Assembly (NCBI GenBank): GCA_973895155.1
Contig: OZ316892.1
Location: 16,039,040 to 16,103,039, forward strand
DNA from: Marsupella aquatica
Taxonomy: Eukaryota > Plantae > Marchantiophyta
Length of the DNA stretch: 64,000 nucleotides
Direction: 5' to 3'
Shown piece by piece: positions 8,863 to 38,774 of the stretch; the first letter of the stretch is position 1; each line of letters begins with the position of its first letter. The translations under genes were made by a program, and so were the position numbers. Below the pieces are notes generated by a model. That model searched no databases. It saw only the letters and a list, made by a program, of their open reading frames with translations, and was not told the origin of the DNA.

Positions 8863-9019
8863 TCCTACTGGACCACAAAAACATGTCATCTATGATCACC
8901 CCGTATAACACAATGCAACCACAATCACCAGGCATCCATCCATACATCTGTGTTGCTTCAGAATTACTTTATTACACATCCTTCCCCTCACTAATGTCCA
9001 TGCAAACAATTCACATTAC

Positions 9020-12775: not shown

Positions 12776-13283
12776 TCATGGACAGCAGTGAATAGGGATG
12801 CCTAATAGTGGTATTTGTGTTCCATATATCCCTGACTGTATGTGCCAAAAGAGTTAACATAACGTGTAATAAATTCTCACAAACCCTAAACCACCCCAAA
12901 AGAAAAAAACAGGTTTGCGAGTAGTGTACCTATTGTCAAGTGAATGACACAAAATTCCTCAATGTTTGAGGGTGTCACCACCTCCACAACTGTCCTCAAA
13001 TGTACCGCCTCTGCATGTACACCCATGACCATATCAGAGTCCAATCATGTATAGTCATAGGCATAGGTGTGAGAGCGGTATCAGATATCTCACCGCCGAG
13101 ATTTGAGCCCACCCAGTACGTTTACAGTGACACCCCCAGGCAGCAGGAAACAACAATCCGCCAACAGTAAAATAAGCCCAACTGCCACCAACCATAACAA
13201 GGTACATTAGTTCAAAGATCACATTTATTTCAATGATCTGATTTATACAAAAAAACTTGTGTCCAAACTGATGCTACTACTCC

Positions 13284-14156
13284 TCACTCTGATTCAGAAT
13301 CGCTAATGACCCATTCCTCACTTGTTGTCTCATAGTCCTCTCTGTAAGGATCCTGACCCTTCCGTGGCCAGGCCTCAAAAAGATTATAGTCCATTGGGTT
13401 TTGACACTTCCCAGCTGCTACTGATTCCACAAGCCAAGCATATGAAACCACAAACACATTATGGGACATGACATAAAAGCGAATGTCTCCCTTCCCAAAC
13501 TTGCGGCAGGCTTTGGGATATGACTTAGTAATGACATGAGTGGTGTCCTCTGTTATATTCTCCTCAACTGTCCCACCTAGGTCAAGCACCGTGGACTTGT
13601 ACACTTTGCACTTAACCTCTCCAATTCCCGCCTCCACAAATACCATGCTCAGCCCTTTCAGAATGGGGGTTGGTTGCTTCGTCTCCTCAGCCAACATACT
13701 CTTTAGCCTTCTAGAGCTCTGTCCTTTGTTGAGTACAGGTCCATATTGGACATCAGCAAGCCGTGCCTTTGCTTCCCAGACTTCTTGTTCAGCCCAAGCT
13801 GATGCAGTAGCTTCTTCATCCTCCCACAGCTCATATTGCTCAGTATCCTGTACAATCTGATGTGCCATGGAATCTGTGATCCAAGAGGCCTCAACTACTT
13901 TTAGGCCTTGCTTAGTAATTGCAGAATTCATGTAGGACCATGACCACTTCTTTATCACTGATAGCCATGTCCCTGCAACAACATGTGTAGTCTCTGGAGT
14001 GATGTCCTGAACTACAGTGCCATGGAGCTCAGAGAATCGTTTCTGTACAATTGGCCAATGCACTTTGGTCAACCCATGCTGGCCATGGACCAAAATGGCT
14101 CTGACCCCTGTAAACACTGCTGGGTGGTCACACTTTCTACGTTTCCCAGGCTCCAT
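13284..14156 (-). CDS. Tandem BRCT-domain protein (DNA polymerase lambda-like BRCT), CACTA cargo
   Basis: Two internal repeats: VFTGVRAILV...LHGTVVQDITPETTHVVA...VVEASWITDSM...YEL and ILKGLSMVFV...LGGTVEENITEDTTHVIT...VVSYAWLVESV...YNL. Both carry the BRCT GG/THV/W..S signatures. Uninterrupted ORF. Confidence 0.85.
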   Translation of the reverse strand: MEPGKRRKCDHPAVFTGVRAILVHGQHGLTKVHWPIVQKRFSELHGTVVQDITPETTHVVAGTWLSVIKKWSWSYMNSAITKQGLKVVEASWITDSMAHQIVQDTEQYELWEDEEATASAWAEQEVWEAKARLADVQYGPVLNKGQSSRRLKSMLAEETKQPTPILKGLSMVFVEAGIGEVKCKVYKSTVLDLGGTVEENITEDTTHVITKSYPKACRKFGKGDIRFYVMSHNVFVVSYAWLVESVAAGKCQNPMDYNLFEAWPRKGQDPYREDYETTSEEWVISDSESE

Positions 14157-14748
14157 GTACACACACCCTACGTGATGACAGTGAATTTTGGAAGAATGGG
14201 TTCACCTGACAATACAAGGACAACAAAATTCCTGCTTTTTGAGTTGATCTGGCCCACTGGTGCTCAGGTCCGATTTTGATAGGTACAAGGGATATGTGAA
14301 CAATATGTACTAGGCACCTGCACGGATGCAGGACATTGTTTGAATATATACTACAAAATCCATATCGAAGGTGAAATGAAGTGCAACCAACTTGTCATGG
14401 CACATACATATTTTGTTGTAAAGGAGGATACGTTCAATGACAAACTTATAGGGCAATTTGATTAATCGCATGCCTAATAATTTATATGCTTACAACTTAG
14501 AAGTCCTGTTTTAATTTAGCAGTTTGATGAAAGTGTTTATGAAAATGACCACTCAGCCTAAATACTTCCAAGAAGGCTTGTAAGGATAAGTTTTTATAGG
14601 CATGTACCCAGCCACTGACGCCAGAGCACAAGATAAGTGCTGCCTATATAAACTCGCCTACCCAACTCCTTTTCAAAATTGGAATCTCTGCAATCTCAAA
14701 AAATAGTACATCCACATCAGGTGCACTGTGCATGTACAATGTTCAGCT

Positions 14749-15429
14749 TCACAGCCAAGATATGTGATCTCTCACAGGAGTGCGCGAGGTAGGATCAATG
14801 GCATGGCGATGACAATAAAATATCCATCGATCAACACCATGTGCAGAGTGATCATAGATTTCTCTATCACAAGCATAACCCTCTGCTTGACGATCTTTCA
14901 GGCAATGATAGTGCCACATGGTGGGACACCTAGCACAGTGGACTATGTCAGTCCAGTACTCATGATCATGCTCACCACATGCCTTGCACCTATGAAGTGG
15001 GCAAGCTGTGGCATGAGCAGGCAAACACTCAAAATAGAAAAATCTCACACAAAAATGGTCTGGACATTTCCTAACATTTGTTGCAGCATCAACAGAGCCC
15101 TCATAGGACCCCAACTTCCCACATTGTGCACACTTAGCCTGCTTCTCCAAACAATCAGTGCACATCCAGTCTCCCTGGTGTGTTGACGGGAGGCCCACCC
15201 TTGGACAGTTGTTTTCTGCAGCAAGGTCAGACTCCGGGTTGAGGTGGAAATGCCTCATGCAAGGGCCCTCACAAATGACCAGGCCCCCACCATCATCACA
15301 AATGGCACAACAATGAGCTGCCTTCTGGAAAATCTGACTTGCAGAGAAGTTAGTAGCATCTGCCCCAAGTACACCTGTGTTTCTCACCTCTGTCACACGC
15401 TTTTTGGCTTGAATTTTAGGTCGTGCCAT
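14749..15429 (-). CDS. Stand-alone EDM2/NSD-type composite PHD finger protein, CACTA cargo
   Basis: CAICDDGGGLVICEGPCMRHFH...WMCTDCLEKQAKCAQCGKLGS...CPLHRCKAC...CARCPTMWHYHCL...FYCHRHAID...TPVRDH follows the EDM2 PHD region as recalled, including the terminal TPVRDH motif. Intronless, 226 aa. Confidence 0.85.
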   Translation of the reverse strand: MARPKIQAKKRVTEVRNTGVLGADATNFSASQIFQKAAHCCAICDDGGGLVICEGPCMRHFHLNPESDLAAENNCPRVGLPSTHQGDWMCTDCLEKQAKCAQCGKLGSYEGSVDAATNVRKCPDHFCVRFFYFECLPAHATACPLHRCKACGEHDHEYWTDIVHCARCPTMWHYHCLKDRQAEGYACDREIYDHSAHGVDRWIFYCHRHAIDPTSRTPVRDHISWL

Positions 15430-15440
15430 GCCTGCGCATG

Positions 15441-15584
15441 AGATAGACTCTACAGTTTAGCAGACTGCACAGAAAGTAATATATATTTAGCATTTAAGGT
15501 ACAAAGGCATTTAGATAGACTCTACAATTTAGCAGACTGCACAGAAAGTAAAATATATTTAGCATTTAAGGTACAAAGGCATTT
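15441..15584. repeat. Tandem duplication, 2 x 72 bp, just upstream of the PHD ORF start
   Basis: AGATAGACTCTACA(G/A)TTTAGCAGACTGCACAGAAAGTAA...GGTACAAAGGCATTT occurs twice. Confidence 0.9.
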
Positions 15585-19912: not shown

Positions 19913-22684
19913 GCCCAAACTGAAGCTACGTAGCAATCCTCAGCAGTGTGTGACAGAAGCACTCCACTCCAGCTCCACTCCGCTCGAGCTCCACTCCAGC
20001 TGCTCTCCGCTCGTAGCTCCTCGGCCAGACCGGCGGCCAGAGCAGCTCCCAAATTGCAGCTCCTGCCCGCCCACAGCTCCTCCCAGTCCTAGAGCTCGTC
20101 GTCCACTGCAGCTCACCTCTCCACTCCGCAAGCCGGTCGCCCTCTCAGCTTGAATGCTCTAGAGCTTTGAAGGTAAACCTTCAAGCTCCAAGCGCAAAAC
20201 TCCCCTACGCGAAGGAACTGCCCCGATCGCGAAGCACACTCCCCACTTTGTGAGACCACGCACAATGTGACGACCTTCAGGCACGACGAATGTCCCCGTA
20301 ATGGACAAGTGAGTTTTTCTGAAACAAAACCCTCCGAGTTCCCACGCACATTGAACTGAACTTTGCACTTTGCTGGCGTGTTTAAACCCTAAACAAAACC
20401 CGCGCACCCTAAACTCGTGTCCAAAGGCACACTCACGCACAAAGCATACCTTAACACTTAGTGACACTTAGTGAACTAAACCCAATGAGCCTCGACCACT
20501 TTGCGTTGACATGAGCCGTTGATACACATGTTAGTACCCTAAAGCAAATTGGACACGACACTTTGTGAGCAAAGATTAAATGAACGCAACTGTAACCTCT
20601 TAGAACGCAACTGTAAATTAACCCTTACACATGCCACTTAGGGAGGGTGGACAAAGAATGGGGGCCAGACACTACTTTAGCCCTGAATTGAAAATGATAT
20701 CACCCCAATATTCTTGTCAAAGTTGCCCATGAACTCTAAGGAATCCATTGAGCAGCATAAGACTTACTATTATAGAGGCAAGTACTCCCATGCACGTTTA
20801 ATTAGGCTAGCTAGGATAACTAGCTACAATGCTCTTGACATGAAGACATTTAACTAGTTTTGCAACCCTAAACCCCCATTCCTTCTATGTGCACCTAGTG
20901 CTCCCGACTCCGCAAGTTGCAAGTCAAGGGTTGTAAATGGAACATTCCGTGATGTCTAGAGTGCATGTAATCCTTCTTGCACTCTATTTCAGAATGCCGT
21001 AATGGAGAGTAGCTTATTCAACTTACATATGACTGCCCTACTAGTGTTACAATTGCTACTTTATCAGAAGTTGTAGGAATGACTTTCACAAATATCCCCC
21101 AAAAATCAGTTGATAAAATGTAACAACAATGACTCCCCTAAACTTGGAGTCATGTATTTTTGAAAGTCTCCCTAAAGTCACAAAGCATAGGGTCTCAAAA
21201 GGGGACGTTTTCTTCTAGTGGCTCCACCTCAGTAGCACGTTGCTGATCGATGACAATCCCCGAGGGAGATGCTCTTCTGGCGAGCAAGCTCATCAACCCT
21301 TGACTCTATTTCTCTATGGTCTCCAATGTCATCTTGAAATCTCTCCATTGGGGGTCCGGTATTCCGCCCCTCCAATTTGTTCATCTTAAGATGATCCCGT
21401 GTCCTTTGAGAATCCCATCTCGAGAATCCGTCCCTCTCAACACCTGAAGGTTTAAGTCCATACCAACTTTGCGCATTACCTGTACCTTCAGTCGTGCCTT
21501 CTCTTTGCAAATGGGAATGTCCAAAGTTGGATTTAGCTCTGACATCTTGACTTGGTGCACCATGCACTAAAGCAGCTCCCTAGCCAAGTGTATCAGCAAC
21601 ATGTCCCTACAAGCGCAAACCACCTCCGGGTCGATCACTGGAATAAGACCAGTGGTTTGCTCCACCCTCCGCATCCGTCCGTTCATTACCTGAATACGCA
21701 TGCCCCGGGCCCATGCCACGGCCCTCCATGCGGCCGGAGTTCCGATAGCGTGACATTCGTTTGCTCACCCTCCCAAGTTGAAGCCAAGCCTAGTAACCCA
21801 ACCCAAAAGCAAGCAAAATGGCTGTCTCGCTTGGCAGTCCCACAATTTTGCTTTACCCAAGACTTATTCAAGCGCATAAGAGATAAAAAAGGTGAGAGCT
21901 CACCCAATCCAGAGCACTTCCAGGTTGATCGCTCCATGCACCCCAAATTCTCCTCCGTAAGAAGTTGTTTTCTCTCCTTCTAATCACCGCTTACACCACG
22001 GGCTATAATCAAGTTCTTCTCCTAATGCACTTTCTACTCCAGATTTAACTTCCTTATGAAAACCAAGAATCCCGTGCAAAGTTTACCAAGGAAACAAGGG
22101 TCGTTCTTCTTCCTCGTCCCTCTTTCCCTGCGTTCCCAACCCTAACATGTTCCAGGTTTTCTTCCTTCTCCGAGCCACACTGAATTTGCTTTCACTTCTT
22201 ACCACAATAGTAACACTCCCTCAATGAGGAGTAATTATCTTAGCATCCTATAACCTTTAATCTATCCTACCTCCTCCCGCCCTCCAAATCCAAGTACAGC
22301 CAGCACACACTTTCAGCTCCGCCAATTCATTGTATCAGCTTAGCAGTCAAATTGTCACAAAACTTAATTCCTCCATATTTAACCTTCCATTGATAATCCA
22401 AACTAAGAGATTATCTTAACCAGATTGATTTCCTCTATCTTTTGAGCGTTCTCTTTTGTACGAGCACACACCAAGACCAATGGCAAAACCATCGGTTACC
22501 GCCTTGCTGAAAATTGATTTCACTTCATCCCACACACATTCCTTGGATGAACATGGGGGTCCACGGAGTAATTGAAGCTACAAAAAAACATTAAAGGTGA
22601 CTAAGTTCAAAATGACATTCAAAGATAGGAAGCCTACTTTGGATATTCATATATGTTGTGATGCTCTATGAAAACTAGGGATAC

Positions 22685-23292
22685 TAGGCTCATTGGAAAG
22701 CACATTTAAAGGTGCCCCCCTTATGATACCAGGATTGGCAATTGTCACCCAATGGAGGGATCAAAGATCACCGAGTGCAAAAAACCCTATAAGCAACTAA
22801 CTTTGCAAGTTTTATTTGCATTGTTGCATGCAAGGGAAAATTGGTGATGTTGGACTCAATGAAAAGCACATCTCATGGCACTTCCAATGCTACCAAAATA
22901 GACAATTGTATTTCAGTAGTAAAGGAGAAGTCAAAAGTCAAACGTCATAAATTACAAAAAGTCTACAAACATTCAACAAAAGGCAACTGAGTTTGATGCT
23001 CAACAGAAATTGGCAATGTTGAGCTTGTTGGGAAGCACATCTCAAGGCGCTTCAAATAGTACCAGGATTGACAATTATCCAACCTTAATCAGGGAGAGGT
23101 CAAAGGTTGATCCTGCTGATGGTAGAAAATAACATTCAAAAGAAGGTATCCAGGGAAAGCAATGGTTGATCCAAATTGTGGAAAATCTACAAGTTTTCAA
23201 GAAAAGACAAATGATTGTGTGTGCAATGATGCTCAACAAAATTTGAAGATCTTGGGCTCATTGGAAAGCACATCGCAAGACTCTTCTAATGG
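22685..23292. repeat. Degenerate ~170-bp tandem repeat with (CATTG)GAAAGCACAT core
   Basis: Cores near 22691, 22860, 23030 and 23259. The first three are followed by an ACCAGGATTG(G/A)CAATT-like sequence. Confidence 0.6.
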
Positions 23293-24030
23293 GAGTGTTC
23301 ATAAAATGAGAGATAACGGGTATGATAGCCACGACAGAAAACAGAAAACAGAAAACCTGTTACCAGGGGTTTATTTTCTGTTAACAGGGAAATTGTACCT
23401 GTTACCAATAAGCTTGTCCCTGTTACCAGTTTTGCCTGAACCATAACGTGCATATCCACCACTCTAAGGTGCATATCCACCACTCTAATGGCATAATTTT
23501 TCGGGGGGCAATAAAGTTTAAAACAAACAATTATTTTGTGCCATCCGATGGATGAAGTGTACTATCAATCCTCCATTGACACAACAATTTATTGTAGAAG
23601 ATAAAAAACATGGTATTAGGAGTGTGCCTAAAGAAACATTCATGCAAATCAATCTATTTTCATCGGCAAATAGTGACCCTTAGAGTGGGACCCACCATAG
23701 CACATGTCAATCGTGGAGTCCAAATGAACCCAATCTAAAGGAGTTGATTAAATGGACCTTGTAACGTCACAAACAAATGACAAATCACATCCTCGAGGCT
23801 TTGAAGACAGTAGACAATTTAATCAACTTACACATTTTAAATAAAACAAGAGGTCATTCTTCCACAATGCACGTACATAATGAAGCAATGAATATCCGGT
23901 TTCCTAGAACCAGCGCCTGGCGCTAACCAACAAAGTCTCAATAAAACAACTAAAATATCTGTTGGAAAAAGACAAAATAGGGAATAACCGTTATATTGAA
24001 CGACGACCTATTGGGCAGTTTCGATCTCTC

Positions 24031-27000
24031 TCATAAGCCATTCAAGTTCTGCCTCTCCAGCACAAGCCTGACTTCGCCTAAAGTCAAAATAGATTGGCTG
24101 CAAAGAGTCGACTCCTCAATCTCAAGTTTGAAAACATTTATGTACACCCAGTATAGATGTTTGCAAGGCATGTACGACTTGCCACGCGAATGTCGGAGGA
24201 AGAAGTCTTCACAAGAGCAAGCGGGGAAGATACAGATTTGGACGAAGTATGTGCTTGGTGATCGATGGTTCTCATGGGTTCGAATTCGAAATTGCTTTCC
24301 AAAAGCATTTCCGGTCTGAACATTCCATTCCCCATCCAAACTCATCACTTCTTGTCGTGCAGACTCCATTCGCTTCGTGTGACCCACAGTGAGATTAGAC
24401 TGAGGCCTTGAGTTCCTCCCATTTCGACTACCAAGTCGGAGATTCGGCTCCAAAAACCTTATTGTTTCTGGGAACATGTTAACATTTATCCTGAGGTCAA
24501 AAGCAGATGGCGCAGATTGACTCAATCCTGTTGTTCACGCTAATACAAGTCCTTGCTCTTCCAGGAATGTAATTTCAGAAGGAGACAGGCTTGTACCCTT
24601 CAGAACAGGCAAAATGTCAGGAAAAGGAGGAAGCTTCTGAACACCACGACGCGGATGACTCTTGTAACACGCTTGGTTCGGGAAAAACCAAATCATTTCG
24701 GAGATGGGTTCGCCCCTGAAGAGACGATGGCCCTTCATGACAATTCTGACAACACCTTCAGACGAATGGAAGCCAACCTTCTTGATACGATTTCGACACT
24801 CATCGCGATCCAAACTCCCATTCAGTGTACCATTGCATTGCGGACCTGCTCCATACTTCGATGTCCGTCGCAACTGCCACTGCCCCGGAGGGACATCCTT
24901 CTCTAGCACAATCGTGCGTGGAAGTTGATTCTGAAGTGTTGCTGGGGCACTGAGCGGAGGTTTTGAGGATCTTGTTGTTCGGGTTGTTTGAGGAGTATAG
25001 TCCAGTGAATCAGTATCACTCTCTGATGTGACCATACCTGAGAGATTCACCACCTTTGTGACAGGATGATCAGAACTTGAGGGAATAGAAGAAAAGTCAA
25101 TTCTGTTCAGGTTCTTCCTTTTCAAACCACGAGTATTTGGTGTGGTTATTAGAACGGTGTCATGCCGATGGGAATCTTGTGGAGAGACAGTCCCAGTTGC
25201 ATGTCCCTTCCTCTTCATTGACTTTGTCATTATATCTCCATTCAGGGGAGTACTTCTTTCCAAATCGAATTCTGCTGCGTTAGATAGAAGCATATTAGTC
25301 GCTTCTTCAAACAATCTTGGCAAACCTGCTTGATCGGCGGAACGGAACGCCAATTCCCATATAGTTGGCCCCTTCCCCCGGTTCAAGCCTTTACGGTATG
25401 CACTGTATCCGGCAACTTGAGACAGAGCACGGTTTTGGTCAACTTCGCAAGCTTCATAAAGACCGACCTTTTTCTTTGTAGCCGAGGCTTTCATGGACGC
25501 ATGCCTTGATTTTGACCCTGTACAGTTGGGGATCAAGGCACCTTCCTCAGCGCTTTTGCTCTGCCATACGAAAATGTCAACCATAAGTAGTATTATATTA
25601 CCAGCGCCCGGCACTGGCAACATAAATATGTAGAACAGGCCTGAAATACAATTTCAATGTTTAATACTGAATTCTAACTACATATTGGCTTCAATTTCTT
25701 GTACTACTTGTTTTGACGTGTATGGAGAAAATAACCAGCGCCTGGCGCTAATATGAAGTTGATGAACATTACAGTCTAGATAGATGGATGCCTTACCACT
25801 CGAATAAAATTGCCCCATTGGCGCCAGCGAACAACCCACCAAGATATCCAGCTTTGCAGCATCTTCAGCTTTCCGGGGACACAGTTTCCTGATTGCCACC
25901 ACACAACAATCTCTCGGGACACCCGGTATGCTGCCACAAATGATGGAGCATTTCTCAATTTCTCCCAAAGTCTCCGATGCTCCGATTGACATTCTTCCAG
26001 TACTCCTTCCTTGGAATGACGATGAAAAGATTGATAAAAGTGAAATGCATCAGAGCGCTCCCTCTCCGGGTCCGGGTGTCCACCAAAAAAAACATTTCGC
26101 ACTGCATTCCATCCAGCTTGTGCATTGTTGGCCATAAATCCTTGGATGACAACCTCCTGAAGTTCATTTTCTTTGCAAACCTCAATCATCACTCTCCATG
26201 CCTTTTCGAAGGACTCAGTGTCTTCACCTTTCAACTCGCATGTGAAAATTGTACACAGTGCACGGAAATTGTGGTTGTAGACGTGTGCGCTGAAAGTAAA
26301 CCAATCCGTGGTGACACGCTGCATCACATCAAAACTTACCCAGGCTTCTTCGAGTCTTCCACCCGGTTGCATCTGCCTCAAAAGATCCACACCGGAACCG
26401 TGACCTTTCACGGTCATTTTAAAGATGTGAGGCCTATCGTTCTGACATCCCTGACCTGGAAGCAAATACCTCTGGAGAAACAACACATGAATCCTCCTCT
26501 GCATTTGCGAGAGAAAATCTAATTCACCCCGACCTTTTTGGTCTATCCTAACGCTCCGACAAAGAGATGCAAACTTCTGCGGAGTGGAAAGGATCATCAG
26601 AGACTTCCATATTTCAGTTTCTTCGATATCGACCATGTCGTCAACATGTTCGCAGAGAGATTTCACTAAGGACCCTGTAGCAGAATTCAAGATCCCTGCC
26701 GGTTTTGACAGAGGATTGGCTTCATGTTTTTTTTTAATTAGATCCTCAGCTATCTTCTCCGCACTCCTACAGAAGGTTTTTCTACCTGGATGGTTGTGCT
26801 CACCTATATGAATTGCCAGGCGGGATATATGACTGCATGTTTCCGCATCAAGTAATACTTGGGGGTACATGTAAAACAAACGGGCAGGGCAGTACTTCAC
26901 ACAAAAAGGAATCTGTTCGCAGTAATGACAAACAACACCTCCCTCTTCGATGAAAGATCCCACAGCATACTGACCACTGAGCTTTGGAGTACCCTGCCAT

Positions 27001-27781
27001 GCCTTAGCATTTGCCTTCTTCTTCCTTTGGAAATAGTCGCAGGACTTGTTCCTGCATTCAATGAATCCTGTACAAGTAACCTTCCCAAACTGCCAAAGGT
27101 TTTTAGGATGAACAGTTGCAGTTGTTGGAAATATGCGTGTCCAAATGTAACAATCTTTGGCACGATCCATGTCCCTAAGCCTAGAGCCTTTAGAGAGCAT
27201 CTTATCAATGGGCGGCAACTCAACACGACGTTACCATTGTACTTAGTTGGCAGACAGGACACTTGTTCATGCCTGAAATGACCCACTGATATGAACCGTG
27301 ACAACTCACTATGACCAGTTGATTTGAGTAACGTATCCATCGCACTGCGCCGGTACACGACCTCCAACTGCTTAGAGCTTCCTGGAGTCTCAGCTTTCAC
27401 GACAACAGGGAGTGGGCTTTTCTTCTTCGACGGTGGACTTAGAGTACGATCTCCATCCTCACTTGAAGAAATCTCAACCACATCACATGGAACCGGCGGG
27501 AAACTGGACAGTCCTGCATGCTATCTTAAACAAACCGAGTACGAGATCCCTACGTAGAGATGCCAAAACCGTTCACCATCATCGACATTGAACGTTGCAG
27601 CATCCTCGATATCATCAATGGATTCGAGCTCTCGAACAATGGCCTCAATGTCATTCATCTTCAAATCAAATCTCCCGCAGAGATACCTCTCCCGGACCTA
27701 CTTGTACGTATCTTCCATGGGGACGGGGATAGTCACAATATCTTCAGAACCGAATCGAGAAAGAACGATAGACCGAGACAT
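24031..27781 (-). pseudogene. MULE transposase: GCM/WRKY-like Zn domain + MULE DDE + SWIM finger
   Basis: Zn domain CTGFIECRNKSC...CHYC...CPAR...HIGEHNHP. Catalytic core WVSFDVM, GFMANNAQA, DAFHF and GSKSRHA. SWIM finger CSC...MPCKH. One frameshift near 27220, an intron at about 25563-25796, in-frame TGA at 24535-24537 and a TAG in the predicted first exon. Confidence 0.85.
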
Positions 27782-28743
27782 GGTGAACAAAAACAAAAAC
27801 CGAGGGCTATAGCGTTTGAAAGAAGAAAAGTTCATGGTATTGTTCAGCTTATATCTGTCGAACCTGGGAATTTGACGTTAACCGATCCGTTTGTATACGA
27901 CATAAAACATTGACGATGGAGGATCCGTTGGCACCATAAATGATTTTTGTCGTTTTTTCCTCGAGAAGTCCGGATGTCAGACACGAACATATTGCTAAAA
28001 AGATCACCAACCTTACTTAAACAGACCATAAGATATGACAAGGTATTGTCAAATTTTAGTAGCGCCTGGCGCTAACTAAAATACGCCACCAAAAATGTGT
28101 CTGAAATCTCGACATTCCAAACTAGCGCCCGACGCTAGTATAGAATAAATTCCCTTAAAATGAACATTATGACCACATACCAGGTGGTAATTGGGAATAA
28201 ATGGTGCCTTCAAAGGATGGTTTTGATTGATTATGGATGATAAATGAACATTTATACTAGCGCCGGGCGCTAGTATTACATTTGAGAAATATTTCTCCGT
28301 AAATGATGTACTGAAGGATACTTTAATAAAATATGGGGGTGGAAAGGCCGAAATTTATGTCAGCTCCTTCAAAAAAGACCTCTAAATTTCTTCCAGTTTA
28401 TACTAGCGCCGGGCGCTATTATAAGCATACTCTAAATTGTTCACCTTGATGGTCATCATTAATGCTAGCGCCCGGCGCTAGTATTGATATGATGTTAGGA
28501 AATGTCTTTAACGGTAACATTCAACGGTAACTTATGACTTCCGTGTGTGTTACGCATCTTCTACCGTTTGATTTTGGTAATTAAACCTTCCGTATACAGA
28601 CGTTGGAAACCGCCAAACATCAGAGCTAATGGCTTTCCTCTAGGTTATGTCATCCTCCCGCTAGAATATATTACACGTTCAGAGATGATTATAGTTCCAT
28701 AATTTCATTGTACGATAGTTCGTACGCTTCTAGAAGGAAGACG

Positions 28744-31700
28744 ATGGAGGTATTCCCCTCTTCTTCTAGAGGGTATAGTGTGGTTCCTGACCAGGAGCGA
28801 GCTTATTCTGAATCTTCGCAGTCTTCGTTTACTGGTTCAGTCTATACACGTCATGTAACTCGTTCCTCAAAGTTGTTGCCGCTCACTTCTGTCAGCGGTG
28901 TTTTGGGTCCAAATCCTTTGCGAAGAAAGATGGACAACGTAGACATAATTGCGATCCAGGATGTTGCGGATTGCGCGCTTGCTGAGACTGATCTCATTTC
29001 GAAGCATGTCATGTCTTTTGGAAAGGATTCTCGTGGATTTGACAAGGAGCCGCCTCGAATCCCTCTGTGTCGATTGGTTCACATGGAGGTGGTTCGTACT
29101 CTGCAGAAAGACAGCTCTTCCATCGAGAAGCTGAAAGACTCTTTTCGTAGTATGGGTTACAACTCTTCGATAGGGATGCGTTTCTATGTGCAGCCAACGG
29201 ATGAGAACGGAATTGTTCTGACCTGTACCCAGGACATTCGTGATTCATGGGATCCAATATGGCAATTGGAGAACAAGAAGTTTGAGGCTGAATGCGAGGC
29301 TGACCCGGATTTTCTCGTCTTGAAGGATAAGATGTTCTCTGTATTTGATGGAAATCACAGGCTGTACTCCTGGACGCTTGTAACAGAGGAGAACCCGGAC
29401 AATCCAAAATATCATCCTCGTGTGCTCTGTACAATATTTAAAGGAGACAAGGGATCTCTCATTGAAATTGAGGCAGCTATGCACACCATGAATCAGTAAG
29501 TTCTCATGATTTCCAGTTCTTTCTTTAAATCTTGCGAGTGCTGTATTTACTAGCGCTCGGCGCTGCTTATACATGAATTGTTTTTCATGGACTCTTACTC
29601 TCAACGTTTGTTCGTGTAGGCTTGGCCAAGCAGTTGTAGAGCCTTCCTGGATCCTGGATGCAGACAGAATCAAACGAATTCTGGCGCATGACCTTGAGTA
29701 TTACAGTAAACTGATTGACCCGGGTAATTTCAAGAAGTTTGAAAGCATTCGGCTGAAAACTCGGAAGGGGTCATGGTATACGAAGAAGATGCCACAAGAA
29801 GCACTTGTTTACATTCTTTGTGAGAATAAGATAAAGTCGTACTCGCATCAATTCAAACTCGACATGGAGGCAGCGGAGGCTCAAGGGAGTCCATGGTCGG
29901 CGGACGAGATTTCAAAACGGCATGCGGCCATGATGAAAGACGCAACCAAAGATTGGGCAGTGAAGTCTTCAAAAATTACGCCCTTATTAAGTCCTGAATT
30001 TGAAGATTTCCTCAGTACATGTGCAGAAATGTATGCTGTCACAGAGAGAAACAAGAGAGAGAAGAAGCCTGACACCGTTGTATGTACGATGGACCGCGCA
30101 CGATTGTTCACCGCTGTTTCTGCTCTAGACCCAAAGTTACGAAGCACTTTACTTGTGGCACATTGCAATCCTGAGCTGCGGAGACAGTTTTTTCACCCAG
30201 CAAGTGTTAACGATGATCCAGTCAAACAGTGGTGCCACACTTGGATCACTTGGAATAGTGTGGAGGGAATTGCTGCTGGCATGTTACATTCATGTCTACG
30301 TGAAGTTGAGCAAACCATGCCCGCGAATAGATTGGAAGAGTGGAATTGTAGTTCATTTGATGATCTAGTTTAGTTTGTTACAAATGAATTCAAGAGATTT
30401 GGTGATTCCGTGAAGAATAAGTTCTTTCACACTATGTGGCCTTCAAAGTACCCTGACAAAGAAGATTACACCCAGAGAAACCAGAAGCGAGCGAAGAGGT
30501 TTGTGTATAGGTTCTACATGCACATGGAGGTAACCAAACCTGATTACTTCTGGGCATATCCTGCAGCTTTTATGAAGTGGATTTCAATAAGTGAAGATGA
30601 TGCCTTGGCTGATTTGTACTCTATGTACCCCACGGAGGGCATATTTCCTCCGAGACCAATGACAGAATGGGAGAGAACTCACTGCCCCTAGTATCTAGAT
30701 ACAGATAGATGGGATTCTCCTTTTGATCAAAGGGAAAAAGATGCCTTCCATAAGCTTTCAAAGTCTCAGATACCAGCAAAACTTGTGTCCGACATGAAGC
30801 AGGGTCTACTTGACGATGTAGACAAGTCTGCCACAAACTTGCAAACTATCTGTGAAACAACTATTGTGCATGTGGACCGGAGTCGCAAACCTCGTGCGAA
30901 AGCCAAAGCGGAGCTAGCAGCACCGAGCGAGTCTACTAAATCTGGAAAGAAGAGTAAGTATTGCTATCCATGATTTTGCCAGCGCCATGCGCTGGCAAAA
31001 GAATTCCGTTGAGGGTATTCTCTTTCTTGGTTATTAGGCTTCGGTTGCGACTTAAGTGAATTGCATTTGGTTAGCGCCAGGCGCTAGCTTCTTTCAATAC
31101 TTTAAAAGTACTTATTCTAACTACGACCTGGTTATATTTTAGGAGGGAGGAAGTCTAATACGGTGGGAACGAGAGATACTAAAAAGGATGCTACACCTGA
31201 AGTTTCCGAGGCAAACACGGGAGCTCGATCGGACCCCATTACTCCAGTCGACAAAGGGAAGGTTATAGTTCCTATCGACGCCACGAGTACCAGGAAGAAA
31301 TGAAAGAGAGCTGTCGAAGGTGGACAATCTTTAAGGGAGAGTGTTATAGCTTCTGGTTTCCAACGTGAAGTTGGAAACTTCAAAACAACTGTGTCTCGCC
31401 ATTGCATGGTTGAGACAAGCCTTTCTGAATTTTTTGACTCGACGTTCAACAAGGAGGAGAAGCCCGAGTGGGTTAGTGATGTGGAGAAATGGGGAAAAGA
31501 CCTCGTTAAATTGGGATTTAAAGAGAAGGGAGTTGTTCGGGGGGGAAAAGTAAGATCGTTTGGAGTGGATGCCGGCTTCATTTACCTACCGACCGGGTTC
31601 AAACCATCTATCATTGATAAGAAGGTTCCTAAATGGAACATTCCAGATCACTCAATGGCGAGATCTTTTTTCAAATCCATGGATCCATTTTTATCAGATG

Positions 31701-32419
31701 ATGGGTTCCTTGTAATTCTACACAATGGGGAGTACGATCCCATGTCGCAAGTCATTGCTGCCTGTCAGGAGTCAAGGAAATTTTAGTGTATATGCTCGCA
31801 TAATGTTGTGATGTCTGACCCGATGTATGCGGCAAAGACAGACCGAGAGATGTTTACCCTCAGGCTCGACATATTTGGCCGAATTAATGGGAAATGTAAA
31901 ATTTCCAAAGACCCCAAATTTCGGCCGCTGTCCATCAGTGAGGACCCTTCGGTTACCAATTTGATCGGACTCTCTTCGCTCAAATCAGATCCATTCCCGC
32001 AAATGGAGTTTGCTGGAAATGCTCGTCTGTCTGTGGGTTTTATGCAATCTGTTATAGAGCTTGTCACACGGCCTCGTGATATTTTTATGGATTGGACTGC
32101 TGGGGCTGGAGGCTCTTACATTGCTGGCGACTTCTCTGGACGATTTGTACTCGGGATAGAACACCGGAAAGAATTTATTGAAACCGCTTCAAAGGTTTTC
32201 ATGGATTTGTTGTCTCCCAAAGAGATTGCAGTGTTACCTCCACCTGTTCCTACTGCCGACAGAAAAAAGAGAGATAAGCTTCGGTCGGTTCTCAATTTTG
32301 ATTCTGATGATGAATCGAGTGAAGGTGAAGAGGAACAAGGTACAAGAAACTTTGAGGAGGAAAAGGGAGAGCATCGTGCAGCTGCAGATGAAACCGATAG
32401 TGATGACTCTTCCGAGTAA
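28744..32419 (+). pseudogene. Three-exon gene for a ParB/Srx-like domain + beta-class N4C/N6A DNA methyltransferase-fold fusion (~1120 codons, 4 nonsense codons)
   Basis: Exons 28744-29495, 29620-30953 and 31143-32419 join in frame through GT-AG introns (3363 nt). ParB-like motif FSVFDGNHRLYSW. MTase motifs VDAGFIYLPTG, FLSDDGFLVILH and VIELVTRPRDIFMDWTAGAGGSYIAGDFSGRFVLGIEHRKEF. Stops at 30371, 30689, 31301 and 31784. Confidence 0.8.
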
Positions 32420-33429
32420 TGTTCATAAACTCGTAAGCTTCTTTCTCCATTCCCGTCAATTCATAACATTTCTTTTGTTGTTTTGGGGAAAGGTGCCTTA
32501 CAAAATGGACTTTGTTATATCAAGTCAGAGTGGAATGCAAGGAGACGATTCAAACTGCGGAGGAAGATCGCAAGACACAACGTAGAAACACCGGAAAAAC
32601 CGTTTGTTCTTCCCTCCTATGCAGAGAAAGCCGCAAGGAAAGCAGAAAGTGCAAGGACACTTTGCTGGGAAAACAAAGGTCTTCGGTTACGAAGGGGTGT
32701 TGACCGAAAGTTCATTAAACATCCTTATGTTGATGACTTCTCCCGCAGCCAGTACGTAGATGATGAGGTTGTGTCCACGGACAGATCCCAGAGTACAGAT
32801 TCTGGTTCCGAGTCAGAATCTTCGGAACCTTGAGAAGTAGTGGGTAGTTGAGGCTAAATCTTTTAGCAGCGCCCGGTGCTTGTAACAAGTGTATTATTTC
32901 CCTCTGCTGAGGGTCCTTTGAAATTGTTGATTTCTCTCTACTTGTTGATTACTTTTGACTTCTGTTCTTTACAAGCGCCTGGCGCTCGCCAAATGGAATC
33001 TCTAAATGGCCGTTTAGTCAGTCGTCGGATTGTGTTCTTTAGTCAGTCGTCGGAAAACCGTTGGGGACCATAGTTTAGGGACCGGGCGGAAGGGACGACT
33101 ATAGTTTCCATTTAGGTTTGTTCGGGACGACGAGAGTTGGGGACGTCGATAGTTGAGGACGACGATAGTTTTGGGAAGACGATAGAACGGGACGTTAGAG
33201 CAGGGCGAGAGAACGGGTCGATACCGGTTACCAAGGCGAAGATAGTTTTGGGAGGCAATAGAACGGGACGATGATAGTTTGATGGTCGTTTCGGAATGGT
33301 AGTGTACGCGGACCTTTATCTGGCGTCTTAGTCTTCGCGGACCTTTCTTTGACCTTTGTCGGCTATAGCACTCGCGGATGACGTTCTTACGGGAGGAGAG
33401 GTTACATATTAGATCGGGATCTTTGGAAC

Positions 33430-33891
33430 ATGGCGAGTCAGTATGAGCCAATGGATTGGGAGGCAGCTTTTCGTCCTTCTCGTGTGCGTCCAGAAGAGAG
33501 CCATTTCAGCTCTTTTGAATCGCGGATGGAGACTGAAGAAACTGAAACTTCCACTTTTCAGAACCGTCATGCTCTCCCGTATGATGAGGCTATTAGTCCT
33601 GGAGAGAAGAACATCCCTTGGATTGTCGATTCCCCTACGCCTCCGTTCTCTAGTCGGTTTTCGTCTCACTCGGGAGTTCTTGTTGATGGGGTACTCCCAA
33701 TCGATCGAAGAGTACAAGAAATGTTCGGGCGAGTTGATTTTAAGGACAGTAATATTCCTAATGAACATTTTACGAGGGCTGTTCATCGAGGACCTTCAGA
33801 GGGATACGTTCGTTTGCGTGGTCTCGGCTTCAAGAAAGATCGGCGGAGAGAAGCAGCAGGAGTGGATGATGATTGCAACTCAGAAAGCTAG
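33430..33891 (+). CDS. Hypothetical 153-aa MULE accessory ORF
   Basis: ATG-initiated, open, protein-like composition, and lies between palindrome copies. No recognisable domain. Confidence 0.35.
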   Translation: MASQYEPMDWEAAFRPSRVRPEESHFSSFESRMETEETETSTFQNRHALPYDEAISPGEKNIPWIVDSPTPPFSSRFSSHSGVLVDGVLPIDRRVQEMFGRVDFKDSNIPNEHFTRAVHRGPSEGYVRLRGLGFKKDRRREAAGVDDDCNSES

Positions 33892-34668
33892 ATGGAAATT
33901 TCGTTTTGCTGATCGCTTTAAGCTAGCGCCGGGCACTGCTAAAGTTTTCCGGATTTTGTGGCATTGAAGTCGACCTCAGCTCTGGTGTTAGGGTTTTCCC
34001 GGTTGTCTACTATTTAGGTTTTGGCTAGCGCCGGGCGCTATTGAAACGACAACGGATTTTGTGGGAGGGAATGGATCTTGACTATGTTGTCTGGGTTTGG
34101 ACGCATCTTGTCTCCAAGAAACGACTAGTTTTCTAGTTAGTTTTTGGCTAGCGCCGAGCGCTGTTCATGTATTAGTCGAAAACCTCCGACGGTGTCGACC
34201 GTGACTTCATGGATGGGATTTTTAGGCCAGATTGTTGATGTTGATAACTGCATTTTGTATCACTTAAGCCGAGCGCGTTTTCTATTTTGCCATAATATAT
34301 GCGAATGTTTTTTCCGGCCTTTCTTTTCTACTTGTATTTGTCTTGGATTTTGTGTATCTCAATTGGCAGCCGTCTTTTATGTTTCAAAAAATTGTTCCCG
34401 TGTTGTTCTTTTATTTATCACGAGGGTTTGGTGGTTTTGTTTTCTATTCTTGTACTTTCAAATGGAGATTTTGAGACCTTTTTTTAAGATCACTGTTCAC
34501 GACCATCCAAACACTGTTCACTGGTAACAGCTCCTTTTAACTGGTACCAGAATCTGTTTCTTGTTACTATTATCTGTTTGCTGTCGTTTGTAAATTCCCC
34601 CAGCATACCTAAGGAGATTAACAAGCGAACGAGAAAGTACGTCAATAACAAGCTCAAAATCATCAGAT

Positions 34669-35160
34669 TTGGAGGAGTCGCAATTGCCTCAACAAATGAA
34701 TAGTCCACCACGACCATCGGGGTCTGGTTTGGCAGGTCCTGCCCCGAGCCCGGTTGCACCTCCGCCAGTGCCCCCATCGGCTGTAGCTCATGCGGCCCCA
34801 GCTCCTCCGCAAGTATCACAACGATCAAGGTTCCATTACCGACCATTCAAAGGACGTCACGGGGACAATCCGGATGAATGGTTGGATGAATTTGAGGCCA
34901 CCACCAAAGCTAATGGGGAAGATGCCATTAAAATGATAGTTCTTCCAGGAGTAATGCGGGGAGAAGCCCACCCATGGTACAACTTGCTACAACCCGGAAT
35001 CACCTGGCCACAATTCCAGGCAGCATTGTTCCAAGAGTTTTGTGTGGTCGGAGCAGAGTCGCACTCCATGTTAAAAATTGGCCATCTTTGCATGGGGAAG
35101 AAGGAGGTCCTGCAAAAGTTCATTCAGAAGTTCTAGAAGCTCGCGGCCAAGATTTTTGCA
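34669..35160 (+). mobile_element. Ty3/gypsy gag (capsid) fragment
   Basis: PFKGRHGDNPDEWLDEFE...MRGEAHPWYN...TWPQFQAALFQEF...LQKFIQKF* matches retrotransposon gag. Confidence 0.8.
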
Positions 35161-35735
35161 CGGGTTTCCCATGGATATGCAATTTTGGGTTGCCCACGGA
35201 TATGCAATTCTGGGTCATGAATCCGCTCATATACGAACACTCTTCCTGGTGGGTTTCTGCTAGCGCTTGGCGCTACTAATATCTGTTCTTAGAACTTACG
35301 TTAAACTAACGGAAATATTTTGTTGTCAACGGTCATCCGCCACCATTTATCTCATATTTATCCATTGTATCAACGGTAAATTAATTCTATTTTGGAGGTC
35401 CACGTCATGTTTTCTTTGTTCAAGATGACTTACTTGCAGAGAAATAAGAATGTCAAACTTGAAACAATCTTGTCATTTCCTATTCTGTCACGTTGTTTGG
35501 GGTAATTAGGGTAAAATGTGTGGTTTTGGGTGACATGATTAGCGTTCTTGTGACTAATAGAGAAGGTCATCAATGCGTTAGTGAAGATTATCTTTGCAGA
35601 AGGTTTGATGTCAGGAGGAAAGACATTAAAATTTTAGCGACACCTGACGAAGGGTAAGCTCATTTTTATTACATTCTGGGAACTGCACGTAGGTGTCCAG
35701 TACATGCTTTCCCTCAAAGGAAAAGGGGTGGTCAG

Positions 35736-36615
35736 GTGAAGTTAGAGACGGGAGATGCACCAAGGGAATTCATTGACCTGACGTCTAATGGCGAGGACTT
35801 ATTCCCTGGATCTCAATCGTCGATCAATGTTAGGAAGATCACGAGCGAAGAATGTCATTTCCAGTATATCAGTGTAGCAAATCAACAGAGGACGTTCTTC
35901 TTGCGTCAAACAATGGATGTGACAAGCTTCTAAAACCTCCTTCTCTTCCTGTCGTTTACAGAAGAAGCGCATTAGACGCCCTTTTGAAATCACCTGGTCA
36001 AAGTGAGCTATCTTGCTTTGTGCGATCAGAGACTTTCAAGCACAAGCAAGTAGAATTACTTCCAAGAACTTACAACGACAATGTTATATTTGAGCTTCCA
36101 CCTGTCGATTGTGTTGGTTCAAAGGGGAAGCGTCTCCTTAACATGGACCGGTCAAGGGATTGCTATCTGTGGACTTGAATTCTTCCTACTTCAACCAATG
36201 TCTTGCTGAAGAAGATGTGGGAGTTTGGCAAAGTCAGTTGTAGCAGATCACTTGAATGTCGAAACAAAGCTTGCAAGTTTTATATCAAAACCAATGGTAG
36301 GAATTGTACGTCATGGGAAGGGACCCCCAAGTTAGGAGGCCAACATTGTCCAGGAAAGTTGATTGATGCAAGAGGGATTGTTTGTCATTATGGTCTTCAA
36401 CTCCCGTTATGTTTGGACTCCTGTTCCGCAAAAATGTTCTACATGTACCCATAAGTCCTGCTGGATTTGGTGACAATGCAGCATATATCACTCCTTGCCA
36501 TCCATATGGGTGTCCATAACCATCCTTGTCAAAAGGTCTGGTCTAGAAGTTTAGAGATAATAGCTGTCGAAGAGATTTGAAAAGAGCACTTCAAGAATCC
36601 TTCTTCCTCACCCTT
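35736..36615 (+). pseudogene. Second, decayed and truncated copy of the GCM-like MULE transposase N-terminus
   Basis: VVYRRSALDALLKSPGQSELS, NDNVIFELPPVD, MDRSRDCYLWT, WEFGKVSC, ECRNKAC and MFYMYP...LAIHMGVHNHP align with 26780-27360 (-). Several stops. Confidence 0.85.
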
Positions 36616-38430
36616 TGTTTGTTGTAAGAAGGACATCACGCCCTCTATCTTGATTGGGTCTACTTGATACAAAAGTTGCACTCCTGGGAGTCCGAACATT
36701 TTGCACAGCTTCGGGTTGGAGAAAGTATGAGTTTTCCCCTTGTATGTAATGAACAAAGCATCAAGTGACATTGTCACCTTAGTAATTTGTGAGCAAATTT
36801 CACCTGCCCAAGCGGTTGATAGATAGCAATCTATTTGCACCATGCCATCAACTCTAGCCCTATCAAGAATTATTCAACTCTCCTCGATGCGCTGCACCTC
36901 CATGATGGAGTTGCGGATCTTCTTGTTTGAAGATGGAGCTCCCTTCTTGTTCCTAGCCGGGGGGAACCTCCGCTCTCCGTGTTCTTGTTGCCTCCATTTT
37001 GCCTAATGAATTCTAGTAGTGTAAGTGGGGAGTGAGCAAATTGTTGCGTTGCGTTTCGGCGAGTGCTTTAGTTGGAAGCAAGGGACAATAAGTGCGCAAA
37101 TGCCTCGTGGGGAAAAATCCAGCCCACCTCTCTGCCTTATGCTTGAAGGATTTCTCTCTTTGGTCTTTGAGTGTCCGGAAGGGCGGGATGGCCCTTTGTT
37201 GTGCAAGCGCGAGAGCATCTTAGTCAAGCGCCCACTTAATGATATCCTTAGATACGGTGATTACTCTGGGGGCTACTTACGAGTGTCCTCTACTCATTAC
37301 TAAGTAAAGCCACAATACTTGATATGGTTGTTATGCAGTTTTCCTTAAGTTCAGATCAGTGGCGGTACCTTAAGACCCATTATGGTTGTCCCAACTATTT
37401 TTAGAACAATAATCGTGCTTTACTATAAACGACAAAAAGATTGGGATCTGCACAAGTATATGTGAGGGGAGCGATACCCTTGGGGGCGGGCCAGGGGCAA
37501 ACCCAAGTTTGTGTGAAGCGTGACGTTCGCGCTACTAAGAAAAAATGCCAAATAAAAATGATAATAAATTCTCAACGTTGTTTGGGTGATTGTAATTTGT
37601 GAAAAGAGCATGTTGGCTCGTATAAAGTTAATCATGCATTGCACTAAGTACTAAATCAAGATTAAAATAATAATTATATTCAATAGAGTAGTGAGTATCA
37701 TGAACGGTTTTGGCAATACTAATATGTTATTAAAGTTTTTTTCTTCAAATTTGCATATCAATGTCTCTACAATTGAACTTTGTACGATAAGCTATTTGAA
37801 TATCCTCAAGAGAAAACAAAACAAATAGATCATTTGAGGCTCTATTCCAATCCATGATAATTTTAATAAATAATGAAAATAATACATTTCCATTCCTCTC
37901 GGTATGACACAACTATATAGACTAAGGGTTCATTAGATCCTATAACAATGACGATAAACCCAAAACCAAAGTGATATATTAGGTGTTATTGTATAGAAGG
38001 TTTGTCTAGAAGATGAACTCTAATAAAAAATGGATTACAAAAGGGAAGATTAGGAATGACACTTTTTGCTTTTGTTTTCTATTAGATTCATAATAACTCA
38101 CATGTTTTATCTCTTGGGCTGTTTTATCTCGAGAAATGACTCACATGTTTTTTTGCTATTCAAGCCAAATGATGTCTCATCTTATATTTCCAAAGAAACC
38201 TTCATCCTAAAGGTCCCATCTTTAATTCTATGACTTATTTTTTTGTTAACCGAGCCAAAAGATACCCTATTATATGAACATAAGGCTAAAGAATGAAGGA
38301 AAATATGGAGAAAATATGAGCATTTTGATGAGAGAATAATCAAGATGTGAATGAGGAAAGAGTGTCTTTTGCAATTTATTTATAGTGAATCCAATAGCGC
38401 ATGGATCACGCCCAAATACTTGGATCAAAG

Positions 38431-38774
38431 GGGTATAACCACCGTGACAGCAAATAGCAAACAACAAACAGTAAATAGTTACTCGTAACAGCAAACGGGT
38501 GGTAAAACTTTTGGAATTTTTTGGGGAATTTTTTGGGGAATTGTTTTTGGGGAAAAAATATTAAATTTTTTTTGTGAGTCGATATTTTTTGGCTAGCGCC
38601 CGGAGCTAGTAATAGTATCGCCTTACACTAGCAAAAAATTGTCATGTTTTAAATTATTTTGAAAATTGTGACTTTTAATGACACATTTTTAGATTGTCTA
38701 GTTTGCTCGTAACAGGAAATTTTTGCTCGTAACAGTAAATCTGTTTGCTATTTGCTGTCACGGTGAAAACCCTC
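38431..38774. mobile_element. 344-bp non-autonomous MULE (MITE) related to the 23318-34600 element
   Basis: TIR core CACCGTGACAGCAAATAGCAAACA at both ends. Perfect 9-bp TSD GGATCAAAG at 38422-38430 and 38775-38783. One TAGCGCCCGGAGCTA palindrome at 38594. Confidence 0.92.

Follow-up and report, generated by a model that had tools for sequence, protein, structure and literature searches.

A ParB-like gene with a degenerate methyltransferase fold and an array of palindromes in a liverwort Mutator-type element: a candidate anti-silencing module

A transposable element that carries, besides its transposase, a second gene and many copies of one palindrome raises the question of whether the product of that gene reads those sites, and to what effect. 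We analyzed such a case in a 64,000-nucleotide stretch of the Marsupella aquatica genome (contig OZ316892.1, positions 16,039,040 to 16,103,039; hereafter the window, numbered from its first base). The window is repeat-rich with spliced genes, and in it a Mutator-type element spans 23318-34600 and contains a transposase, a divergent spliced second gene, which joins a ParB-like domain to a methyltransferase fold, and 16 palindromes. An earlier note on this DNA had proposed that these parts form a new self-recognition system that marks, spreads over or de-silences the element's own family. The reading that we prefer, with about even confidence, is that the second-gene product acts as a family-specific anti-silencing clamp, i.e. 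with the logic of the VANC proteins of VANDAL elements and with parts like those of VirB.

With up to one mismatch allowed, the 64 kb window holds 18 copies of the AGCGCCNGGCGCT core: 16 within 23318-34600 (nine exact, seven with one mismatch) and one each at 35262 and 38595. Allowing two mismatches added no further palindromes in the window. First-order Markov simulation of 23318-35700, repeated 200 times, yielded 0.015 palindromes on average and never more than 1, compared with 17 observed, which rules out a chance origin. All 16 palindromes of the element lie outside the predicted exons, with one downstream of the transposase, two in the transposase intron, five between the divergent starts, three in introns of the second gene and five downstream of it; the outermost are 594 and 438 bp in from the element ends. 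Counting therefore confirmed the earlier claim of 16 copies outside the exons of both main genes, far beyond chance. Its description of a 15-bp palindrome was fair but too short, as the pooled consensus extends to ~19 bp (RCYAGCGCC-N-GGCGCTRGY, around the core AGCGCC-N-GGCGCT, in A/T flanks). The sites are CpG-rich.

Copies of the family were judged from contigs of four public sequencing runs, one of which perhaps yielded the window itself, and copy number was taken from the depths of single contigs, as depths added up over contigs do not measure it. In run X1 a contig with a depth of 21.5 stops 30 bases into the left end of the element and unique flanks have a depth of ~20; single contigs inside the element have depths of 272-429, with 332-429 for the second gene and 366 for the right end. 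In run X2 the flanks are at ~30 and the internal contigs at 463-604. We estimate from these depths that there are ~15-20 near-identical copies of the element. Multi-copy contigs cover 23341-24150 and 33903-34597, the single-copy contig stops at 23347, and the terminal inverted repeats, which are short, imperfect and unlike each other, match the depth boundaries in position. The second gene is as frequent as the element ends, which rules out its lying outside the element and removes a concern raised in the earlier note; the Atlas class of the transposase, the terminal repeats and the depth agree with that note in placing a Mutator-like element (MULE) transposase and a divergent gene in one element. 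No target-site duplication, which in Mutator elements is of 8-11 bp, was found at the 23318/34600 ends of this copy, which may be explained by a multi-copy repeat abutting the right end (open frame 34594-35136, without a Pfam match, presumably similar to a retrotransposon gag). This copy differs from its family mostly by C-to-T or G-to-A changes, a bias indicating that elements of this kind are already repressed by host silencing. In three runs contigs connect 23933 with 25804, bypassing the 3' half of the transposase gene, and this junction is that of a multi-copy, internally deleted subfamily.

Exons 1-3 of the second gene encode ~1120 aa, within a protein family of ~1100-1200 aa, and the product of 32493-32833 is homologous to the C-terminal ends of members of the family in Riccia. 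Most copies lack three of the four premature stops found here; that at 30371 is not among the majority differences at a 70% threshold. Exon 1 has 238 relatives at an E value of 0.001; 20 of these were looked up, 11 being from Riccia sorocarpa and four from Adiantum. A single R. sorocarpa protein, P0155 (R1sor_027256), matches all three exons, with E 2e-28 for exon 2 and E 3e-16 for exon 3. The order of the domains is conserved. The ratio of nonsynonymous to synonymous substitution is 0.07-0.11 for the ParB exon in a trio of related loci (L004/L005/L012), other pairs being saturated, and the exon is under purifying selection in this trio. Relatives of the N-terminal domain (N-domain) were found neither in viral contigs (0 of 32 pattern matches) nor in prokaryotic genomes (0 of 43) nor among annotated phages.

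The N-domain was compared with known folds using an AlphaFold model of P0155 residues 152-1172, built with 72 sequences, which has a mean predicted local distance difference test (pLDDT) score of 62.9 with the N-domain mostly above 90. When the 1000 top Foldseek chains were re-aligned by structure, the leading matches were ParB and Noc (Z 9.0-8.2, 178-199 residues, root-mean-square deviation (rmsd) 6.5-7.4). The best chain, 7bm8 (Z 9.0, 178 of 180 residues, rmsd 7.4), spans the N-domain and, roughly, the DNA-binding domain, and the N-domain alone superposes on 6t1f with an rmsd of 2.7 over 91 residues. Sulfiredoxin reached Z 6.0, which together with the lack of a cysteine in Box II rules out a plain sulfiredoxin-like enzyme; the ParB/sulfiredoxin fold named in the earlier note is supported by the predicted structure, with ParB/Noc ahead. 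The first part of exon 2 aligns loosely with the helix-turn-helix DNA-binding domain of ParB (positions 15-379 of the model). Across 43 sequences the Box I R is kept in 39, the Box II G in 41 and R in 38, and the Box III N in 41; Box II reads G-N-H-R in 38-42 of the 43, and M/L precedes the conserved Box III N. The nucleotide motif, previously read as GERR, is therefore GNHR. The canonical GERRxRA and EN motifs are absent, TIGR00180 was unmatched in the 43 sequences, and sequence and profile searches of solved structures with the N-domain matched no ParB. Modeling the N-terminal 400 residues of the modeled stretch as a homodimer, without an alignment, gave no answer (score 0.00), and no ParA-like open reading frame (ORF) was present among the element ORFs scanned. 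In the Atlas the N-domain lies nearest to fungal DUF3723 (PF12520; clusters at 0.95, 177-178 of 256 features, family share 47%, 31% and 92%) and then to ParB_N. The GNHR of Box II weakens the case for use of cytidine triphosphate, and nucleoside triphosphate (NTP) specificity is unpredictable from sequence or models (10.1101/2025.10.10.680097; here and below, statements from cited papers refer to the accessible part of each text).

Exon 3 keeps the permuted order of beta-class methyltransferases, with the motif IV position (YLPT, 31583) before motif I (DWTAGAGG, 32090), and both S-adenosylmethionine (SAM)-binding motifs, I and II, are present. Foldseek ranks beta-class methyltransferases first, i.e. 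CcrM and M1.HpyAVI, with none below E 0.001 (CcrM 1e-3), and the region matches the DpnA-like M1.HpyAVI at E 7.8e-6. Sequence matches and predicted structure thus support the amino-methyltransferase fold previously assigned to this gene. A search for long homologs of the window methyltransferase region found none, and when folded without an alignment the region had a pLDDT of 34.5. The consensus of catalytic motif IV is (D/N/S)PP(Y/F/W). YLPT stands in the majority of element copies and in the 64%-identical relative P0158, which rules out that the motif was lost by decay of this copy alone. The motif is of the D[LM][PS][STR] type in Riccia, where the aromatic residue is absent in every row covering the position; it reads DIPE, DVPR, NVPG or NIPR in metagenome loci, and DVPF only in a fern protein (Adiantum P0093). 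Because motif IV is degenerate in this family and in most relatives, the methyltransferase domain is, on sequence grounds, likely a pseudo-enzyme.

This bears on a first alternative, in which the protein would actively write N4-methylcytosine (4mC) or N6-methyladenine (6mA) at the palindromes, as a self mark or as a block to 5-methylcytosine. The kept beta-class order and motifs I and II, the top-ranking Foldseek matches, the fern DVPF and the CpG-rich palindromes are in its favor. So is the existence of a 4mC writer in Marchantia (10.1101/2021.02.12.428880); 4mC is also reported in rotifers (PMC8885841), the accessible text of both papers having no mention of ParB, and eukaryotic adenine methylases are treated in PMC4738411. 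However, the state of motif IV in the majority copies and P0158, in Riccia and in the metagenome members makes a writer very unlikely, and the earlier suggestion that the protein 'marks' its family unlikely.

We then turn to whether palindromes accompany this gene elsewhere. Of 210 pattern matches in a scan of metagenomes, 114 were confirmed; from these we kept the best 80, which form 50 groups. The window palindrome, with up to two mismatches, occurred in none of these best 80 of the 114 related loci. At least 5 kb of upstream DNA was available at 28 loci (18 groups), with a related opposite-strand transposase upstream in 10 loci (8 groups); one of the 18 groups has a same-strand transposase fragment and in nine none was detected. 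An unbiased scan found at least five copies of some palindrome in 8 of 35 near-gene segments versus 1 of 34 control segments (28 far flanks and six window stretches; Fisher p 0.028). In a targeted scan, for which null means were below 1, we counted GGTGCC-N6-GGCACC (17 in L005, 3 in L007), CAACTTT-N8-AAAGTTG (13 in L029, 9 in L070, 5 in L046, 3 in L075), GCTTCT-N12-AGAAGC (3-5 in L041, L043, L051 and L056) and ACCCRA-N8-TYGGGT (3-8 in six groups). These arrays sit upstream of the ParB exon or in introns, and they vary in number and place among relatives. One CpG-decayed core occurs in clades C and F (10 copies in L029, 5 in L046, 6 in L070, 6 in L016); the idea of a core common to clades C, D and F held only weakly for D (0-2 copies). 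On a tree of 20 labeled ParB domains the seven motif types need six changes, the minimum, compared with a mean of 12.3 for shuffled labels (0 of 200 shuffles as low). Clade-specific palindrome arrays beside the gene are what a VANC-like model predicts. The co-occurrence of gene and palindrome suggested in the earlier note thus holds in the sense that several clades of relatives carry arrays of their own, but not for the window palindrome itself. Two kinds of tandem array were also seen near the ParB-like gene: 15-bp arrays (ATGGCTAAA-like) at L029:15600-16100, L073:5370-6720 and L066:5660-6670 (three groups), which may be subterminal repeats, and 50-bp arrays (CCACCAATAGCC-like) at L020:4860-6260 and L046:20-710.

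We prefer the anti-silencing clamp because two-fold sites suit a ParB dimer, because the placing and turnover of the sites match those of VANC targets, and because VirB is a precedent, i.e. a ParB-type anti-silencer (PMC10770331). A dimer of the ParB-like protein would read the two-fold palindrome of its own element; the clamp would then close and slide in an NTP-dependent manner, as ParB and VirB do, and the methyltransferase fold would serve as a DNA- or SAM-binding module rather than as a writer. As a result both divergent promoters, where we place the effect because five palindromes cluster there, would be de-silenced, and host silencing of the family would be countered. The self-recognition and de-silencing module of the earlier note is supported in part, in that the gene travels with the element and the arrays are clade-specific; the part that does not stand firm is the assignment of the array, which may be the transposase's by co-descent.

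Several observations weigh against the anti-silencing clamp. On the protein side, the match to the DNA-binding domain (rmsd 6.5-7.4 at Z 8-9) is of middling quality for a helical model, the catalytic glutamate and one arginine of GERR are missing from Box II, and DGQHR is the sole NCBIfam model matched by more than one member, weakly and in 4 of 43. On the DNA side, the unbiased scan left 27 of the 35 near-gene segments below five palindrome copies, and of its eight positive segments two (L020, L073) are plain tandem arrays. In the motif tree only two groups are starred clades; left out of it are the 30 groups without a label, L076, whose segment was too short, and low E-like counts in L047 (4), L056 (3), L080 (2) and L006 (2). 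The motifs were picked after the data had been seen, with labels on only 20 of 50 groups, and kin share motifs by descent, the non-coding DNA of clade members being 65-82% identical; the tree is therefore a record of concerted turnover of arrays by clade, not of co-evolution with any one protein. MULE transposases, too, are able to bind motifs and switch on their own family (10.64898/2026.08.24.746577), and here the transposase may be the palindrome binder, as it co-descends with the array. Finally, the central palindrome of a miniature element in the window fits a role in transposition equally well.

The transposase point amounts to a second alternative, in which the transposase or a host factor binds the palindromes and the ParB-methyltransferase gene has long been kept as a passenger with a different function. 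The Atlas identifies the transposase as that of a MULE (PF10551 in the top clusters, 0.94; all 10 of the best named matches belong to the same family or clan); no Pfam model matched it at E 0.1, and a search against solved structures matched nothing. A C-x-C...C-x-H pattern at 24219-24159 and HIGEHNHP at 26810 are what we take to be the SWIM motif and the N-terminal zinc finger. In this copy the gene is broken by a frameshift near 27221-27230, stops and catalytic substitutions: a catalytic D is found at 26330, and the other two predicted catalytic positions, the second and third, hold N and K instead of the D and E of the relatives L063 and L026. Consistent with the passenger alternative, the AtMu1 transposase activates its own copies sequence-specifically (10.64898/2026.08.24.746577), and a related transposase fragment in the window has the same palindrome upstream with no ParB gene left beside it. 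The motif tree cannot separate the transposase from the ParB-like protein, as transposase and array descend together. However, the element termini hold a repeated motif of their own, distinct from the palindrome, that suits the transposase; these CTGTTAC/ACAGAAA subterminal repeats are predicted to be its likely sites. Arrays are also present at clade C loci (L029, L046, L075) with no transposase match in the upstream DNA covered, a dimer of the ParB type would be well matched to two-fold sites whose spacing differs by clade, and the red-algal arrays discussed below adjoin a ParB gene. We consider the passenger alternative quite unlikely.

ParB clamps condense and bridge DNA, and a third alternative is that the protein binds the palindromes as a transposition cofactor, loading inside the element and helping to pair or expose the two ends in the manner of TnpA or MURB. 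The miniature element is the main case in point: its 343 bp keep only the termini and one palindrome centered exactly at the midpoint (38601), and it has a 10-bp target-site duplication (9 of 10 matching). The short and mutually dissimilar termini of the main element would also fit a cofactor, which the position of the palindromes at the divergent promoter and in introns, well in from the ends, does not, nor does the variation of the arrays in number and place among relatives; we regard a cofactor as possible but unlikely. A fourth alternative, in which binding represses the element and limits its copy number, could draw on KorB, a ParB-family long-range regulator of plasmid genes (10.1101/2025.10.10.680097), and on the five palindromes between the two starts. 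As host silencing already acts on this copy and the known transposon-encoded motif binders activate, such a repressor appears highly improbable.

The anti-silencing clamp can be set against known systems. In the Plavaka elements of the red alga Bostrychia inverted repeats in tandem adjoin the ParB-like PAG3, a methylase-SET gene is present separately, and PAG2/PAG3 homologs are reported in Plavaka and Mutator elements of Chondrus crispus (10.1101/2025.02.11.637652). By description, the present element resembles PAG3 in its ParB-like accessory gene, inverted-repeat arrays, PF01555 methylase and self-binding hypothesis. The PAG elements have ParB fused to a putative 2-oxoglutarate oxygenase and methylase fused to SET in separate genes, with tandem arrays, whereas here ParB and a degenerate methylase are joined in one land-plant protein and the sites are dispersed in introns; a Pfam scan of the window element proteins gave no SET match. 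To call this a 'new system', as the earlier note did, was therefore an overstatement, the self-binding logic having been proposed for PAG3 (10.1101/2025.02.11.637652): the concept has a red-algal precedent, and it is the land-plant fusion and the clade-specific palindromes that were not found in print. Our literature search, which left out subscription journals and Repbase reports, found no land-plant Mutator with a ParB-methyltransferase fusion and nothing joining DUF3723 with ParB.

As in VANDAL elements, a Mutator accessory gene here accompanies short motifs in introns and intergenic DNA that differ between subfamilies; VANC subfamily motifs often arise by tandem repeat formation, and they are 8-9 bp in the same orientation whereas the present sites are palindromes of 13-24 bp (PMC5735166). 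Motif binding and demethylation are demonstrated for VANC (PMC5735166) and predicted here, and Pfam scans found no domain common to VANC and the second-gene protein. Transposon-encoded anti-silencing has been shown for few proteins, i.e. VANC, TnpA and a transposase, in Arabidopsis and maize (PMC5735166, 10.64898/2026.08.24.746577). The protein shares with ParB, Noc, KorB and VirB the predicted N-domain fold, GxxR, Boxes I and III, a helical DNA-binding-like domain and multi-copy palindromes in cis; it differs in having GNHR for GERR, insertions, an extra helical region with the methylase fold, and introns. Phage ParB-N6N4-methyltransferase fusions have the same domain order (10.1101/2025.10.10.680097) and are a likely source of the second gene, although here the catalytic motif is degenerate and the protein is of ~1100-1200 aa; weak PHROG DNA-methyltransferase matches were found, the best being that of P0160 (E 4e-9). 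In phages, ParB proteins that activate dioxygenases have been described (PMC13229309). DUF3723 (PF12520) is a conserved accessory gene of fungal Starships (10.1101/2021.12.13.472469); as the nearest Atlas clusters to the N-domain it is a lead only, with no Pfam DUF3723 match. The accessible text of the ParB-fold survey contains neither 'plant' nor 'transpos' (10.1101/2025.10.10.680097), and that of a MULE survey does not mention ParB (PMC6446971).

Table 1. Coordinates of the element, its genes and palindromes, and related features in the window
Feature	Position	Strand	Remark
Left terminal inverted repeat with subterminal CTGTTAC/ACAGAAA repeats	23318..23430	+	Single-copy flank contig ends 23347
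Palindrome 1, downstream of transposase	23912..23924	.	Motif scan
MULE transposase gene: presumed zinc-finger N-terminus, DDE region, presumed SWIM; predicted intron 25561-25796	24031..27781	-	
Palindromes 2-3 (25603, 25737), transposase intron	25603..25749	.	Motif scan
Palindromes 4-8 (28061, 28124, 28259, 28405, 28467), between divergent starts	28061..28479	.	Motif scan
Second gene, exon 1: disordered N-terminus and ParB/sulfiredoxin-fold nucleotide-binding domain; DGNHR at 29347	28744..29495	+	
Palindrome 9, intron 1 of second gene	29552..29564	.	Motif scan
Second gene, exon 2: helical region; premature stops 30371 and 30689	29620..30953	+	
Palindromes 10-11 (30981, 31073), intron 2 of second gene	30981..31085	.	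Motif scan
Second gene, exon 3: linker and beta-class amino-methyltransferase fold; premature stops 31301, 31784	31143..32419	+	
Possible exon 4 or small downstream ORF, splice predicted	32493..32833	+	E 0.002 vs P0020, 7.6e-5 vs P0172
Palindromes 12-16 (32868, 32974, 33925, 34027, 34150), either side of 153-codon ORF	32868..34162	.	Motif scan
153-codon ORF of no known family, inside element	33430..33891	+	ORF list
Right imperfect terminal inverted repeat	34500..34600	-	Multi-copy contig ends 34597
Decayed related transposase fragment, 52% amino-acid identity; palindrome 35262 upstream	35262..36613	+	
343-bp miniature element, termini related to main element	38430..38772	.	Depth suggests many copies

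Other features of the window can be dealt with briefly. Within the element, the 153-codon ORF (33430-33891) has no homolog among the collected family proteins and loci, and is preceded by short GGGACG-rich repeats at 33060-33350. The single-copy left flank contains a degenerate repeat (22659-23290, period ~166-233 bp). A CACTA-like element at ~5000-15500 has transposase-like ORFs at 9899-12775 and a CpG observed/expected ratio of 0.31; its ORFs at 13284-14201 and 14749-15456 we take to encode tandem BRCT and PHD-finger domains. A 462-codon ORF on the minus strand (34-1422) presumably belongs to a pogo/DDE_1 transposase, and exons at ~48500-51400 resemble a host Vps18-type gene.

A wider proposal, which we put forward as doubtful, is that land-plant Mutators, red-algal Plavaka and Mutator elements and, through DUF3723, fungal Starships share a ParB-derived, NTP-gated sliding clamp that loads at family-specific palindromes, spreads over chromatin and lifts silencing, here fused to a dead methyltransferase that would shield or read the CpG-rich sites. 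If true, a ParB-type loading-and-sliding clamp would act on eukaryotic nuclear DNA and DUF3723 would gain a function. Such a clamp would offer a direct mechanism by which short motifs could lead to the de-silencing of kilobases. As several clades each offer a natural pair of protein and site, specificity could be probed by swapping them, and full-length homologs are available from Riccia. The hypothesis put forward for red-algal PAG3 would also be tested in plants in this way.

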